The position numbers and the translations under genes are program-made. A stretch of 64,000 bases of DNA, from the NCBI GenBank assembly GCA_026770705.1, contig JANJGN010000015.1, positions 95,728,001 through 95,792,000 on the forward strand. Reading direction: 5' to 3'. The notes under the pieces were generated by a model. The model was not told where the DNA came from and made no database searches. It saw nothing but the letters and a program-made list of their open reading frames with translations. Below are positions 2,970 to 35,287 of this stretch, one piece after another (positions within the stretch are counted from its first letter, which is position 1; each line of letters starts with the position of its first letter). Source of the DNA: Isurus oxyrinchus. Lineage: Eukaryota.

Positions 2970-3590
2970 AGCTAATTCCACTTTCCAGCTCTTGGCCCAT
3001 AGCTTTGTAGGCTACAGCATTTCAGGTGAATAACTAAGTATTCTTAATTACAATGAAGATTTCTGCCTCAAGAGTGAGTTCCAGACTCCCCCCATCTTCT
3101 GGGTGAAAAATTTTCACTGCAATTCCCCTCAAATCCTTCTACAAATTATTTTAAATCTATGCCCCTTAGTTATTGACTTCACTGCTAAGGGGAATAGGCC
3201 TTTCCTATCTACTCCATCTAGTCCCCTCATGATTTCATAAACTTCAATTAAATCTCCCCTCAGTTTCCTCTGTTCCAAAGGAAACAATCCCAGCCTATCC
3301 AACCTTTCTTCATAGAGACAATTCTCCATTCCCGGCAAAATCCTCATAAATATCATCTGAACCCTCTCTGGAGTGACCACATCCTTCCTGTAGTGCAATG
3401 GCCAGAACTAGAACAGTACACTAGCTGTGCTCTAACTAGTGTTTTATACAGTTCTAGCTTCCTTGCTTTTATATTCTTCACCTCAAATAAAGGAAAAGTA
3501 ACCCACGTGCCTTCTTAATCACTTCTAACTATCCTGCTATCTACAGAGTCCTGTGGACATGCACTCCAAGGTCCCTCTGTTTCTCTACAG
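2970..3590 (-). mobile_element. CR1 LINE 3' fragment
   Basis: ORF 3129..3398(-): YEERLDRLGLFPLEQRKLRGDLIEVYEIMRG; ORF 3541..3798(-) ends QRDLGVHVHRTL. Confidence 0.85.
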
Positions 3591-5454
3591 GAGTTGCATT
3601 TTGTGCAGGAGCAGAAAAGTCAAGGGATAAGTCTACCTGCTCTTGATCTGCTTGCCCCAAGTTATTTAATGGCTGTTGGGCCTTTAATTGGTTTGAACTG
3701 GCACATCCACCCCAGAAAGGAAGTCTTGCCTCCAAGAACTGCCAATCAAATGGCTCCCAACTATCATCCCAAGCAATGCCAATGGGAACAGTGGCCAAAG
3801 CTGGGAATGTATGCAGTACTGAAGAGGAGATGCTAAGTCAGAACATTCAGTCAAGTATATGGTCTCACTGGGGCCAGGAGGGCAAGTGCTGGCAAAGGGG
3901 GTGGAGGTGGGAAAGCGCAAGGGAGCTGGGATTCCAATTGGCATAGGGGCCTGGATTTTCATTCTTGAGGTGGGGAGGGAGAAGTTGGAAAAATTCGCAG
4001 CTAGGGAGAAAGTGCCCTCAAAGGCAGAATCTTTATTGCTGGGGGCAGCTGTGGCTGGAGTTGGGCCAGCTGATCCACAAAAAAGTGTGAGGCAGCCACA
4101 GGGGTTAGGTATGGAGGCAGGGTGTTTAAAAAGCCCATCTCAGTGCCATGGGATTTTGTCCTAGCTAAAATAACACAAAGGCCCTCCATCTCTTACCCTT
4201 TGTTCCCCCTTCATCCTCCAAATACCCATGCCCCATCCATGCTGCCTCATGCATCCCACCCACCCCTATGCCCCCTCATGTCCCCTATGCAAGCTCTGTC
4301 CTTCCACCCACTCCTATAGCCCTTCATTGCCCCATGCCAAGATTTGGCACTTCCATGTCCATTGATCCACTGTACACTTTCTAGAACCACTGAACCCTAT
4401 AGTGCAGTGTATAATAGTATGTATAAAAATGCTTTGAAAAAAAAGTAATTCATTGAGAACTTTCTCCGATGTTTGGAAAAAAAAAGTCTGGACTGCAAGC
4501 TAATAAAAGTGACAATCATCAAAGCCCTTTGAAATTTCAGAAACCACAAATCATAAACCATTGAAACCACAACTTGTGTAAATAAACATTGTGAAATTGA
4601 CTGCAGATTGACCCAGGGAAAAGCCTCAATGTTATTGCAATTGCGCAGCTTTTCCCTGAATTAATGCAAGTGTGGTGGAGGTGTGTGCTCTATTGAATGT
4701 CCTCTTCATTTGCTGCCCTTGAGAGGGTGGTGGTGAGCTGCCTTCTTGAATCAGTATGGTGTGTGTAGTGAAGGTATTACTACATTGATTAGGTAGGAAC
4801 TTCCAGAATTTTGATTCGGTGTTGATTAAGGAATGGTGACATGTTTCCAATCAAGATAGTGTGTGACTTTGGTCTGCTGACCAAAGTTGGTGCAAGAGGG
4901 AAAAACAACTAGCGTTACTATCTTGTCACTCCTGCTGGAAAATGTTTAGCATGATGCCATTTGGGACTAAATAGGCAGTCAACATATATTAAAAGATACA
5001 TGTGAAAAATGGCCACTTCAGGCTGCCAGAATCTGAACAAGATGCCAGTGCCTTTAGGAAGGGGAAGGTAGAAAAGGAGAGAGAGAAGAAAAACAAAAGA
5101 ATATATCAACACGTGTTCAAACTACAGATTCACAACATTCCTGGAAAACATCCTACAGCACCCTTCTTAAGAGCTGGCTCAGTTCCAAGGAATACCTTGT
5201 ACAGATTTACCATATATTAAAACTGCAGACTCCTTGGTCCCACGATTCAATCTCAAGGCAACCTGCCATTACATTGCAGCTCCAGGTTTCAATATAATGC
5301 CCTCAGATATTAATTACCTAATGAGGCAATTTTTTTAATAAACTGGAGGATAAAAGTAGTAAAGCTTCTGATTCCAGTAACTTGTTTTATTTTTTTTCTT
5401 CTCTACTTTTAAACACACTAATTTTACCACATAAATTGAAAACAACATATTTGC

Positions 5455-30258: not shown

Positions 30259-30546
30259 CCATTCCCTTGGAAGAAAGAAAGCTTCACTAAAATGAAGGTT
30301 TCTTTACAATGGCTTCAAAATTTCTTTACAAAAGTACTTAACATCATAAAATCCTAACAAATGACATTACATACCTTTTCGTCTTGTTGCTCAAGTACAC
30401 ACATCACATTATAAAGTTACAAAGGTTTAACCAAAAAAAAGTCAGCATATGTAACAAGTGGGAGTAGCAGGATTTAAACAGCATAGAATTACCATAACTC
30501 AGATTCTCCCTTTTCTCCTATACTCTTTCTTTGAACTCTGAATAGA

Positions 30547-30578
30547 ACTTACCTGGCAGGGGAGAGACCTTCATCGCG
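30547..30578 (+). pseudogene. U1 snRNA 5' fragment forming the head of the LINE
   Basis: ACTTACCTGGCAGGGGAGAGACCTTCATCGCG versus vertebrate U1 nt 3-34 as I recall it (ACTTACCTGGCAGGGGAGATACCATGATCACG): 22/23 in the first part, 28/32 overall. Confidence 0.8.
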
Positions 30579-30598
30579 TTTCTGCCAGGGAAAGAGCA

Positions 30599-32117
30599 AT
30601 GGCTATAACCAGTCAAACCCCTTACCATGGGGTACCTAACACCATCCGAGTCATGGTGAAGGATAACGAGCAAGGAACAGGAATGGATAGGAACTTCTTC
30701 ACGAAGAGGATCCTATTCAAGCTGTGTGGTTTTGAGGCTGCGGATATCTACTGCCTACAGGATTTCCCCAGCGCTGGTTTCTTTGATGTGACCTTCAAGC
30801 ATGTGGCAGCTTGTGTCAAACTCCTGAAGGTGTTTGAGGAAAAGAAAGACCTGCCAGAAATGAAGATCCTGACGGCGCAGCCGCTCTTTGTTCTACCGTT
30901 GCATCATGAACGGGTTGCAACGATGCATCTGTACAACCCCTACGTCCCTGTCACTGACGTGCTCACCTTCCTTACCAGGTACTTCGATAAGGTTGGGAGC
31001 TGCACTGAAGTTAAAGATAATTTGGGGATCTGGACATGTAAACACCAGGTTAAGGTAACGCTCAAGACCGACGGTAAGGGAGCTGTTTTCCACCCCCCTT
31101 CCAGATTCGCTATTGGGGGAAGCCGTGGTTACCTTGCCTACGCTGGGCAACCCAAACTTTGTCACTCATGCGGCAAGTCTGGTCATGTGGCGGCCAATTG
31201 CAGTGCTGTCCTCTGCAAGAACTGCAAAAAGGAAGGGCACCAGACAAAAGATTGTAAACAGACTAAGTGCTGCAACCTGTGTGGCGAGGCAAGTCACCTC
31301 TACAAGACCTGCCCCAAACGTTGCTGTACTTATGCACAGGCAGCTAAAGCCAACGAGGGGGAAGCAGAAGAAATGCCTCGTGTCACTCCAACCACCAAGG
31401 CCCCCAGGGAAAACATTGGGACAAAGGAGGACACAGAGAGACAAGGTGGAGGAAAAAATTGAGGCAGCAGACAGCCAATCAACAGCACTGCCCCCTGAAC
31501 CTCCCACTCCTCAGGAGAGCGAATCAACGGAGGAGGAGGAGGCAGCAGTGGGAAAGCAGCAGGGGGAGTGGCAGCTGGTGAAGAGAGCCAAAAGGAAGAA
31601 GGGGCTAAAAAGAAACCAAGCCACCTCCCAGACAAGAGTCAAGAGGCGTCTCCTATCCGACACGGATAACAAGAGCAGCAGCTCTTCGGACGAAGAAGGG
31701 CCAGGGCGGCGCCAACAGAAGAAGCGGCAAAACGCTAGGGGGTTGGAGGACGAGTCACCCAACCTCCCGAACATTGGTGACAATGAGGAGACCAGCGCAC
31801 CCCAACTTGGCCCACAACCCAAAGAGGCCAGTGCACCACAACCCCAGGAATCTGGGAGCAGTGAGGTGCTCAGCGCACCCCAGCTCCAGGAAGCCAGGAG
31901 CAGCAACGCCCCAGAGGGGGAGAGGATTGGAGAAGCTTCTCCAACAGAGGACATTTCAAACCCCGCTCTCTGCACGGACCCCCAGATGCCACCCGAGCAG
32001 AACATCTCCAATGGGGAGGTTCAGGACGCTTTCCTCAGCCCATCCCAAGTGAAGCAATTTGAGCACACCACGGGCATGAAGAAACTCTCAGAGACAACAG
32101 GTTTGGTAAGCGACTAA
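30599..32117 (+). pseudogene. Tx1-type ORF1 (ZCCHC3-like N-terminal region, three zinc knuckles, low-complexity tail), one frameshift near 31430-31460
   Basis: CHSCGKSGHVAANC, CKNCKKEGHQTKDC, CNLCGEASHLYKTC in 30599..31462; continues in frame 31113..32117 (WQLVKRAKRKK). Confidence 0.85.
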
Positions 32118-32127
32118 CTGCTTTAAA

Positions 32128-34121
32128 ATGGGTGTAAAGATTGTATCCATAAATGTGCGTAGCATTAAATCTACTACGCGATGTGTTGCGACCTTGGACT
32201 ACCTTGCCAAGTCAAAGCTGACCTGCTGTTTCTACAGGAGTGTGCGATACCGCACCTCAGCTCCTAAAGTCAATGGTCACAATGGTGGTCCCATGGGCCA
32301 TCGATCTGGTCGGGAGGAAACGACTCTCGTTCCTCTGGCCTGGGGATTCTGCTGCGGGGAGGCAGCTTCACCGTCTCTCAGGTTAAGGAGGTGGTGGGCG
32401 GGCGCCTCCTCGTAGCAGACGTAATGTATAAGAATGCTCCACTCCGTTTAATTAACGACTGCGCCCCGTCCCAAGGGGCTGAGCGGCTGGAGGTTTTTCA
32501 GCAGCTCCCACTGCTGCTGGCAACCTCCAGGCCGGTGACTTCAACTGCATCATCGATGCGGCTGGACGATCCGGCAGGGCCGACAGCAGATTGGACGCTA
32601 CATCCAGATCCCTGATGGAAACAGTAAAGGATGCCAAGCTGCACAATGTCTTCAGCAACCCTGCAGATGGAGCGCAGCGTAGATACACCTGGTCGCGGCC
32701 TGACGGGTCTGTCTGTTCCAGGATAGACTTACTGTTTGTGTCCCGCGCATTTGCAGTCAGATCCACTGACGTCAAGCCGGTGTTCTTCTCTGACCACTGC
32801 CTCCTACTGGCTGACTGCCACTTAGAGAAGGACCAGAGGGTTGGCAGGGGGACATGGAAGCTAAACATGCAACTGCTGACCCCAGAGAACATTGAGGAGC
32901 TCAAGAGGGATTACAAAGGTTGGAGAACCATGAAACCCCACTTTGAGTCACTGACACACTGGTGGGAAGCGATCAAGGGAAACATCAAGAGGTTTTTCGT
33001 CCTCAAAGGCACCCAGAAAGCTAGAAAGGAACAGAGGGAAATGTCCCGACTCCAGAAAAACATGCAGAATCTGCTCTGGCTGCGGTCGATGGGGGTCGAT
33101 ATCAAGGAGGAACTCCAAGAGGTGAAGAGCCAGCAAGCCTCGCTCTTTGCCTCAGAGGCCTCCAAGATCATCTTCCGTTCCAGAGTCTGCTCTGTAGAGC
33201 AGGATGAGACGTGCTCACGTTTCTTCTTCCAAAAGGTACACAGAGAGAGCTCTGTGATCAGCAGCCTGAAGAAAGAAGATGGCTCAGTTAAGTCATTGCA
33301 ATCTGACATCTTGAGGATTAGCAAATCCTTCTATGCCGGATTGTATGACTTAAAGCCCACAGACAGCACGGCCTCCCAGTCCTTCCTGTCCTCTATCACG
33401 GAGGTCTTAGATGACAGTACACGGGAGAGTCTGGACAAAGCGCTAACTCCTGACGAACTGACTGAGGCCCTTGAGTCCTTCGAGAAGAGTAAAACTCTCG
33501 GAAGCGACGGCTTGCCGGCGGAGTTGTATTCGGCTCTGTGGGACTGGATCGGCCCAGACCTGCTAGAAGTGTACGACAGTATGCTCCTGGCCGGCAGTAT
33601 GTCAGAATCCATGAGGAAAGGCATTATCACCCTCATCTACAAGCACAAGGGGGAAAGGGAGGAAATTAGAAATTGGCGACCCTTTTCACTGTTGAATGTG
33701 GACTATAAAATTCTGTCCAAGGTCATCGCCATTCAAGTCAAATCCGCTCTGGAGTTGGTGATTCACCCTGACCAGACCTGCACTGTGCCGGGCAGGAAGA
33801 TCTCTGACAGCCTCGTGCTGCTCAGGGATACGATTGCCTATGTACAGGACAGGGGTGTGGATACCTGCCTCATCAGCCTGGATCAGGAGAAGGCCTTTGA
33901 CAGAATATCGCACACCTATATGGTGGATGTGCTCTCCAAAATGGGGTTTGGGGAGGGAATTCGCAATTGGATCCAACTGCTCTACACTAACCTCAGTAGT
34001 GCAGTCTCAATCAATGTGTAGCAGACTAGCACTTTCCAAGGTCCAGGACTACATGCTGAGGGACACAGTTAAGCTTGGGGCAGCCGCCGCAAAGGCGCAA
34101 TGGGGAAGGGTCGCTGCCTAA
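32128..34121 (+). pseudogene. Tx1-type ORF2 (APE endonuclease, N-terminal RT, extreme C-terminus), frameshifted and deleted
   Basis: KIVSINVRS, YTW, SRIDLLFV, FSDH (APE); NWRPFSLLNVDYKILSKVI, SLDQEKAFDRISH (RT); jump at ~34017 to CSRLALSKVQDY...AQWG. Confidence 0.9.
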
Positions 34122-35287
34122 GACCTTTCTGCCACAGTGCACTGGGGGGCTGGGAACTGTAAAGAGCCCCTCAGGCTGTACAGATTAAAATGTATGTCTG
34201 TCAATGATTGAAATATTCATTGTTTTTTCTGATACATCTTGTGTTTCAGTTTGTAAAAGTTGAACCTGTTTGTATTTTTGTAATGGTGATTTAAAATGTT
34301 CGAAATGTTTTTGAAGATTTATGAATAAAGTATATTTTTGCAAAAAAAATAGAACAGCAACTATATGGTTTTTGGTCATAATCTTTTCATGGTCACCCAA
34401 AGATAATGAAGATACATTAAAGTATTCTTTAGAAACATCTTGACCAGCTTGTATTTCTATTTAGTATTATGGTTTTCAACTTTGTTGGTGTGAATGCAAA
34501 CCAGTGCTCTGGCTGTTTTCCCCTTTTCAAATATGGATGCATATCAGTCATATTATGTGACACAAATGACTTTCACCTAGGCTTCTCAACTTTAATGCAG
34601 AAGGACATGGGATTTTTCTTACTCTCCTCCTCTGTTAATGATTGAATATGCATTCAATGGGTCCTTTGCATTTGCAACGGACACCATGTAAATTTGGCAA
34701 CCAACTTCAAAATTATCTTCCTCACTCATTTCTTCCATAACAGATTTTCTCTTTTCATTGTTTTGATCAACATCAGATGAATAAACTTGCACTGAGGGGC
34801 TATTCTTCTCTTTACTCAAGTCATTTTCTAGTTTATCTTAGATATATGCTACAAACATCTGGACACATTCATATTTTCCCCATTGACGTTTCAGAAATGG
34901 AACCTTCATTTCCACTTCTTTCACAATTTTATCCAAGTAGTTTACTCTCTTTTTCCAGTTTTTTTCCAAGCTTGTGTTAATATTTTCATTCAGCTTAGCA
35001 AATACTCTAGTGAGTTTAGTTGTCTTTGTTTCAGAGTTATCTGCAAAACCCTTATACAAGATTAACAACTTCAGATAGGCCTTCAGTTCATTTTGGAATC
35101 TTTCTTCTATAGTCACTGACTGCTCCTTTCACTTCTTAGATCCTCAATCTGTTTTCCTGAATTTTCCTTATCTGCTTTTAAAGTCTGGATTAGCGCTTCC
35201 ATACTGCACATCTCAACTTTCATGGTACACTGATCAGTTTTTCCTTCAATTGCTTGTTATCAGCAATAAGCTTCTTATACCTAGTAA

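Follow-up and report, generated by a model that had tools for sequence, protein, structure and literature searches.

A Tx1-like LINE family of the shark Isurus oxyrinchus with a U1 snRNA-derived 5′ end and its probable spread from U1 snRNA genes

LINEs of the Tx1 clade with U1-derived heads are already known from crocodilians, where the Tx1-Mar families Tx1-2_Crp, Tx1-2B_Crp as well as Tx1-4_AMi were described (Kojima 2015, PMC4494074) without targeting of U1 genes. The main text of that paper contains no U1-gene insertion and calls the transcription of the U1/U2-headed SINEU elements open. An earlier note on the locus analysed here had pointed to the U1/U2 heads of crocodilian SINEs, which is correct but leaves out these U1-headed LINEs (PMC4494074). 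In the available portion of PMC4640811, U2 snRNA genes are named as the target of Keno, a member of the Tx1 clade with an APE endonuclease, and of Utopia, which has an RLE, and only these two and the DNA transposons Dada-U1 and Dada-U6 are listed as parasites of snRNA genes. No LINE targeting U1 genes was found in the literature searched, which included portions of PMC8869645, PMC4640811, PMC5786205 and PMC2912911; Repbase, Dfam or Kojima and Fujiwara 2004 may hold one.

The window, a stretch of 64,000 nt of the I. oxyrinchus genome (contig JANJGN010000015.1, positions 95,728,001 to 95,792,000), contains on its plus strand a copy, dead and with an internal deletion, of a Tx1-like LINE family whose elements measure 5.2 kb. 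As the earlier note had claimed, the copy is bounded by a target-site duplication, here of 8 bp (30541..30548 and 34348..34355), and head nt 3-4 are at the same time the last two bases of the 5′ duplication, an overlap by microhomology that is usual in the family. The first part of the head (30547..30576) corresponds to U1 nt 3-32 with 27/30 or 28/30 identities to the genome's U1 types, and the second part (30577..30595) to drifted U1 nt 39-57, following the loss of nt 33-38. The U1 match proposed in the note was reproduced with the commonest U1 gene type of the genome (23/23 over nt 3-25, 28/32 over nt 3-34) and reached 29/32 against a T26/A39 variant, to which 25 consecutive positions are identical. 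Its suspected continuation is real and comes from U1 nt 39-57, with 12/19 matches here and 18/19 in the oldest subfamily. ORF1 (30599..32117) starts with an ATG at 30599, which is head nt 55 (about 50 nt in according to the note), and encodes two ZCCHC3-type RNA-binding domains and CCHC knuckles (~506 aa where open). It is followed by an ORF2 remnant whose APE endonuclease precedes the first half of an RT (32128..34019), the joint of a 1.4-kb internal deletion that removed element nt ~3475 to 4871 (34016..34019), the ORF2 end and 3′ UTR (34020..34341, AATAAA at 34324-34329), a short A-tail (34342..34349; family mode 9-10 A) and the 3′ duplication, and no U1 remainder is present behind the A-tail, as had been stated. 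Besides the deletion at ~34017, an ORF1 frameshift near 31450 as well as a stop and frameshifts in ORF2 inactivate the copy, which in the copy tree falls into the same terminal burst as copy L088. The Rfam scan did not report the short U1 piece of the window as U1 and all regional Rfam matches were below thresholds, so the significance of the U1 match rests on its recurrence. Sequencing runs of two organisms contain the window stretch, and possible RNA runs share 22-34% of its words.

The family comprises ~1,000-1,900 candidate copies, about half of which reach the 5′ end. In the copy tree they form a ladder that terminates in a single star burst. ORF2 was broken in all 35 full-length copies and no intact master was found among them. 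Target duplications with a median length of ~17 bp were adjacent to the element in 34 of 39 copies and unresolved in 4; L095 and L106 were left out of this analysis, as no 3′ end was found for them. ORF1 proteins of the Tx1 clade have RNA-binding domains and CCHC knuckles, unlike the mammalian L1 ORF1 type, and the first and second RBD_ZCCHC3 domains and zf-CCHC were identified by Pfam in ORF1 of the shark family. In ORF2, Exo_endo_phos and RVT_1 indicate an N-terminal APE endonuclease followed by an RT, and comparison with human L1 ORF2p resulted in an E value of 3.6e-65 over residues 9-793, versus only 4e-11 for R2. The family thus shows the characters of the L1/Tx1 group, namely an ORF2 with APE and RT, two ORFs, a 3′ A-tail and target duplications (~10-20 bp expected), and it shares the U1-derived 5′ end of the U1-headed Tx1-Mar elements. 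The closest RT homologues are newt and frog proteins (50-55%); two homologues with 41-44% are named 'transposon TX1 uncharacterized 149 kDa protein', these names being homology labels only. As a weak hint, the endonuclease hairpin loop aligns gap-free to the L1 loop and is two residues shorter than that of the LTX chimera.

A search with ORF1 only was used for the analysis of the 5′ ends, and 27 of 30 loci carried the head to within nt 1-10, the remaining three being cut inside or after it. The U1 piece therefore travels with the element, as the note had held, and a situation in which other full-length copies lack the head does not apply. A one-off chimera was rejected on the basis of this constant head, and a longer upstream 5′ UTR was rejected as well, since no upstream sequence beyond the head was common to the 30 loci; the family 5′ UTR has a length of 54 nt and is wholly U1-derived. 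With a head-plus-ORF1 query, all 40 scored matches likewise started at query positions 1-11, at 97-100% identity. The oldest heads consist of U1 nt 1-57 minus nt 33-38, and head nt 1-25 are identical to host U1 in all four groups; the older heads were retrieved with a pattern in which nt 9-32 are fixed, which accounts for part of their conservation in that stretch. The deletion of nt 33-38 and subfamily-specific changes are inherited by all copies and absent from every U1 gene, and T26 is present both in the young head and in the type of U1 gene whose flank is carried by L088. In later heads, U1 nt 8-15 are predicted to become buried in a newly formed helix (z ~ -2.6), a result given little weight because the matching U1 fragment is predicted to misfold alone too. 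Among copies reaching +1, 20 of 29 (13/18 and 7/11, pooled p 3e-7) have a G at -1, where the U1 gene has C; L122, chosen by its flank, was left out of this count. Such a G is as expected from a cap, and it is usually the final base of the target duplication as well.

Joints between the element A-tail and the 3′ part of U1 were detected at 23 genomic places, 22 of them at U1 nt 37-42, with a chance expectation of 3e-5 to 3e-3. The search over U1 nt ~35-93 yielded 19 matches (18 at nt 37-41, 13 exactly at nt 40) and superseded an earlier pattern that had missed the main subfamily (3 matches, all at nt 40); four further places came from another search, and a search over nt ~88-146, which had no positive control of its own, gave none. 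All joints fit one position and a tract of 8-10 A. The element-bearing U1 loci are nearest to at least three different, diverged types of element-free U1 genes and span different subfamilies, one of them with a 3′ UTR only 77-79% alike; L088 and L144 have elements that are 93% alike and flanks that do not align. Evident duplicate loci were present as well (L140/141/144/145, L142 twice, L236 three times). In one locus (G000:C15:44702400-44708550), detected from the 3′ side only, U1 upstream DNA (304 nt, 88%) is followed by the head, a continuous full-length element, U1 nt 40-164 and the U1 3′ flank, an arrangement for which the note had proposed to search. This promoter-headed locus is 87-91% identical to the family, and its octamer is mutated, an 8-nt gap precedes +1 and the head is degenerate. 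Three exact-match pattern searches of the assembly for a young copy immediately downstream of a U1 promoter detected none; they returned two matches in unrelated DNA, no match (without a positive control) and one unrelated match, respectively. In the other in-situ copies, promoter and U1 nt 1-39 are missing (L136 from ~-200 to +39, L144/145 from ~-916 to +39), and a search of ~75% sensitivity detected no truncated copy that combines an intact 5′ part of U1 with a duplication.

Transductions of U1 sequence provide a second link to U1 genes. Two dispersed insertions contain, within a single target duplication, the head and the element followed by the U1 remainder, the 3′ box and the flank; the duplication has 21 bp in the fully read L088 and 14 bp in L211/L224. 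This indicates that the RNA of both insertions began at U1 +1 in a U1 gene; for L211 and L227 the sequence read comprises the parts on either side of the middle. The whole-unit transductions begin at U1 +1 and extend past the 3′ box as far as a poly(A) signal located downstream. L088, L226 and L228 share one flank (93-94%), and L135 and L224 another (96%). Among 39 head-selected copies the sole transduction was of this U1 type, and none of unique non-U1 DNA was found.

Contact with U1 is restricted to ~1% of copies (23 places versus ~1,900 candidates; 0 of 30 fetched 3′-end loci and 1 of 40 listed), far from the target in >20% of flanks that Kojima's rule sets for a target-specific family. Target-specific behaviour of the family is confined to its sources. 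Unlike Keno, which is characterized by a conserved U2 site, the family has its joints at U1 nt 40, as judged from the searches for U1 joints and from the sampled 3′ flanks. Dispersed targets showed no U1-like motif (6.3-7.0 of 24 matches, chance ~6) apart from an A at -1 in 19/24; the 3′ flanks of the sampled copies are mutually unrelated, and there was no regional enrichment near U1 genes (4% vs 5.5%).

The reading preferred here, to which we assign a probability of about 0.72, is that the lineage has repeatedly come to lie at nt 39/40 of U1 snRNA genes and that rare U1-embedded masters, likely using the upstream U1 promoter, seed copies across the genome with RNA starting at U1 +1. The head would have arisen once, from U1 nt 1-39 and an 18-nt target duplication of nt 40-57, a length that fits the median of ~17 bp, followed by the loss of nt 33-38. 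When a U1 gene is entered again, the end of the cDNA would pair with U1 nt 1-32, and the head would replace the 5′ part of the gene without a duplication and be refreshed from host U1. This pairing would probably count for somewhat more in homing than a strict specificity of the endonuclease (~55:45). The master RNA would probably be capped, and dispersed copies such as that in the window would be promoterless dead ends. The two readings offered in the note, a U1-targeting LINE and a fixed U1-derived leader, become parts of one picture: the head is fixed, and the recurrent nt 40 joints, the promoter-headed locus and the transduced U1 remainders back the targeting, from which we infer promoter use.

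L1-type elements usually have an internal promoter, and a fixed U1 leader with a promoter of its own in the head or ORF1 would make the dispersed copies the sources and the U1 insertions a side effect of homology. The ~99% of dispersed copies, about half of them reaching the 5′ end, and an assembly in which exact-match searches detected no young promoter-headed copy are in line with this. The reading is nevertheless unlikely, since all identified transductions stem from U1 genes and none from unique DNA in 39 copies, the 5′ UTR comprises just 54 nt of wholly U1-derived sequence, and the tree, a ladder with one star burst, looks like that of few masters. Furthermore, no internal promoter has been reported for snRNA genes (PMC4494074). 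Slightly less probable still is a single ancient U1 insertion from which later U1-joined loci derived by duplication, gene conversion and transduction without repeated targeting. One joint position with an 8-10 A tract would be accounted for, as would the plain duplicates and the dispersed targets devoid of a U1-like motif, but the loci represent three U1 flank types, more diverged than the elements, as well as different subfamilies, and conversion would require a crossover inside the 125-nt U1 remainder every time; diagnostic sites are too few there for a crossover between U1 variants to be recognized. The identity of head nt 1-25 to host U1 in four groups and the recurrent addition of U1 to the 5′ end of crocodile SINEU-2 (PMC4494074) could also suggest that each copy is a chimera formed by template switch to, or ligation with, U1 snRNA, like mammalian U6-L1. 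The junction, constant and inherited, largely refutes this reading and makes it very improbable: a variable junction to an unaltered snRNA piece was not what the family showed, its 33-38 deletion and subfamily changes are foreign to U1 genes, and the nt 40 joints and transduced 3′ boxes would be left unexplained.

Within the preferred reading of U1-embedded masters, a further step may tentatively be proposed, at somewhat less than even odds: a promoterless LINE living only via U1 genes and homing by RNA homology instead of endonuclease specificity. The head and the U1 remainder of a read-through RNA would steer the element back to nt 39/40, each re-entry would gain a U1 promoter and renew head nt 1-25, and ~99% of the offspring would be scattered as dead ends. 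If homing depends on RNA-DNA pairing, the family would be a natural case in which an APE-type LINE is steered to its insertion site by homology, and such a life cycle, if true, could explain the transcription of crocodilian SINEU and U1-headed Tx1 elements.

Among the known systems, the crocodilian Tx1-Mar families resemble the Tx1-like shark family in that they are Tx1-clade LINEs whose 5′ end derives from U1 and which terminate in poly(A); they differ in their preferred targets, Mariner-N4_AMi or LTR elements (PMC4494074); the shark family, in contrast, occurs in U1 genes at nt 40 and has a promoter-headed locus and U1 transductions. As far as the available portion of PMC4640811 goes, Keno and Utopia likewise insert in snRNA genes with an exactly defined 3′ boundary, and reptile Utopia also shares weak specificity, with few U2-flanked copies and 20-bp duplications, but their target is U2 and neither snRNA heads on dispersed copies nor use of an snRNA promoter is reported there. 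Zebrafish Dada-U1 inserts in U1 snRNA genes too, and the accessible parts of PMC8869645 and PMC4640811 describe it as a DNA transposon with 6-7-bp duplications that lacks an RNA intermediate and a U1 head. R2 of the 28S rRNA genes is transcribed via its target gene, as is probable for the shark family, and co-transcribed target sequence boosts its targeted integration; it differs by an RLE endonuclease, a Pol I co-transcript, ribozyme processing and strict specificity (as cited in PMC4494074), whereas the shark family has an APE endonuclease, a likely Pol II cap and copies of which ~99% are off-target. The snRNA-L1 chimeras, U6-L1 among them, also have snRNA sequence 5′ of a LINE within one duplication, but they are one-off events with variable LINE junctions (as described in PMC4494074), unlike the inherited, constant junction found here. 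The shark family thereby joins the parasites of snRNA genes to the unexplained transcription of U1/U2-headed elements (PMC4494074). It shows a LINE inserting into U1 genes, with a U1 head that was probably made from the 5′ end of the gene and a target duplication, and its transductions can be regarded as fossil transcripts starting at U1 +1, so that the idea of a borrowed snRNA promoter is now directly testable, crocodilians included.

The element lies at window positions 30547-34349 between 8-bp duplications, as read from the sequence, and the U1-like 5′ end claimed in the earlier note was borne out when 42 U1 genes of the same 4.98-Gb genome were scored as reference: head nt 3-25 agree at 23/23 positions, and nt 3-34 at 28/32, or 29/32 with the T26/A39 U1 variant. 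ORF1, beginning at head nt 55, encodes two RNA-binding domains of the ZCCHC3 type together with CCHC knuckles; APE endonuclease and RT domains are encoded by ORF2. In most copies the head (window 30545-30598) is in frame with ORF1 from +1, the U1 transcription start, over 18 stop-free codons. The window copy is dead (frameshifts, one stop, a 1.4-kb deletion). The nearest ORF1 homologues are all from sharks (Cetorhinus 72%, Heterodontus 50%, Chiloscyllium 43%, Pristiophorus 46%), and the probable assignment to the Tx1 clade follows from the architecture and from the names given to homologues rather than from a phylogeny that includes named references.

A query with head plus ORF1 returned 983 candidates, and all 40 scored begin at query position 1-11. 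In order to escape the bias of a head-containing query, ORF1 only was also used. Of the 30 loci fetched in this way, 27 have a head reaching U1 nt 1-10 and three are cut inside or 3′ of it, and no other upstream DNA in common was found among them. The head is thus a trait of the family, and neither headless full-length copies nor a 5′ UTR extending further upstream, which would have spoken against a U1-derived leader, emerged from these loci. Full-length copies measure ~5.2 kb; the 35 compared are 3-7% apart (nearly all 3-5%), each with a broken ORF2. Among 39 copies having a 3′ end, a duplication (median ~17 bp) adjoins 34, one has it beyond a transduction and four are without a clear one. 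The copy tree is a ladder terminating in a star burst, which includes the window copy.

Older heads (n=30, ORF1 region 85-94% identical, fetched with a pattern holding nt 9-32 fixed) form a graded series. For nt 1-25 the majority sequence is identical to host U1 in 4/4 head groups, U1 nt 33-38 are absent from all groups, and from oldest to youngest the agreement of the second part with U1 nt 39-57 falls from 18/19 through 16/19 and 13/19 to 12/19 positions. The oldest head therefore equals U1 1-57 minus six bases, which is what an element that inserted at nt 39/40 and duplicated 18 nt would be expected to have ahead of it. The contrast in changed positions (0/25 versus 9/26, p 0.002) is weakened by the fixed nt 9-32 of the search pattern.

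Copies inside U1 genes with the U1 remainder downstream, as anticipated in the earlier note, were found. At locus L088 the A-tail directly abuts U1 nt 40-164, and pattern searches for such tail-U1 joints yielded 12 and 19 places, 23 of them distinct, with the joint at U1 nt 37-42 in 22 (chance expectation 3e-5 to 3e-3). The 19-place search spanned nt ~35-93, the single outlier lying near nt 50; a separate pattern search over nt ~88-146 found no joints. Several insertions are in situ, carrying 1-9 kb of U1 3′ flank. One subfamily (L137, L138, L221; C21 near 102.47-102.49 Mb), only 77-79% alike in the 3′ UTR, likewise has joints at U1 nt 40, three of them in a 25-kb stretch. The U1 cluster units (L140:2772-3608, L144:3025-3857, L145:3036-3872) repeatedly contain an older derivative with an internal deletion, in which element nt ~51-576 are fused to 4400-4706. 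A 1.57-kb antisense copy is found from L003:1883 onward (sense of U1), ~220 nt downstream of an intact U1 gene; of the U1 genes, this is the nearest paralogue of the one from which L088 derives.

The L088 unit, read whole, comprises head, element, A-tail, U1 remainder, 3′ box, ~230 nt of flank, AATAAA and a second A-tail within one 21-bp duplication; L211/L224, read from its ends, has a like arrangement inside a 14-bp duplication. The flanks of L226 and L228 match that of L088 at 93-94% and the nearest U1 gene at 89%, L226 and L088 have a common poly(A) site, and the L135 flank equals that of L224 at 96%. Because of these shared flanks, the five daughters would stem from two U1-embedded sources. 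Three of them begin at U1 +1 with a preceding G. This G at -1 occurs in 13/18 young and 7/11 older copies (background 24%; the U1 gene has C) and usually doubles as the final base of the duplication, which we read as pairing between the target and a C derived from the cap; PMC2912911 interprets a G of this kind in SVA and L1 as a copied cap.

We favour, at a probability of about 0.72, a cycle in which Pol II, acting at the U1 promoter, would transcribe masters within U1 genes into capped RNA headed by U1 sequence. Most insertions would be near-random dead ends, and a minority would return to nt 39/40 of a U1 gene; pairing of the cDNA end with U1 1-32 would there restore the promoter link. Against targeting, U1 contact is seen in only ~1% of copies, and no enrichment of copies in U1 neighbourhoods was found. 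Nor was any resemblance of dispersed target sites to the U1 site found, and recognition of the latter via RNA-DNA pairing is for this reason slightly favoured over recognition by the endonuclease.

A single insertion multiplied by duplication or conversion is improbable: although some of the 23 places are duplicates of each other, the U1-joined loci represent several subfamilies, and their nearest U1 genes without an element belong to three different types, so that at least three placements, probably more, are independent. Repeated template switching is very improbable. Transcription from an internal promoter is unlikely, if slightly less so than a single multiplied insertion.

Evidence for a role of the U1 promoter comes from one locus (G000:C15:44702400-44708550), where 304 nt of U1 upstream DNA (88%) run directly into the head. 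The element follows uninterrupted and at full length, then U1 40-164, the 3′ box and U1 flank, and the U1 5′ part is not duplicated. Being decayed, this locus is a relic of the layout predicted for masters rather than an active one. The remaining in-situ copies examined upstream (L136, L139, L140/141/144/145) have lost promoter and U1 1-39, either by deletion on insertion or by selection against active masters.

Other sites recur among the insertions. Four of 40 fetched copies (L085, L109, L110, L122) lie no more than a few dozen bases from one spot in an abundant, apparently LINE-type repeat, and L090 and L114 have a common insertion site in another repeat, possibly reflecting a secondary target preference. 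At L084 (3′ flank) and L135:7692-7801, a copy is inserted just upstream of an older member's head, resulting in a tandem arrangement. Promoterless U1 retrocopies at L017, L019 and L020 (U1 at 1501-1664) retain the 3′ box and have their first base at nt 2-3, resembling the element's own 5′ junctions; L017 is flanked by a 14-bp repeat. They are possibly pre-U1 mobilised in trans.

No LINE inserting into U1 genes was found in the literature searched, to which Repbase/Dfam, Kojima and Fujiwara 2004 and the SINEU supplements did not belong. Keno and Utopia are known to target U2, and Dada to target U1 (PMC4640811, PMC8869645). As U1-headed Tx1 families are already described from crocodilians (PMC4494074), the bare observation of a U1 head is not new in kind. 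In that study the crocodilian families are tied to Mariner and LTR targets, and SINEU transcription was left unanswered.
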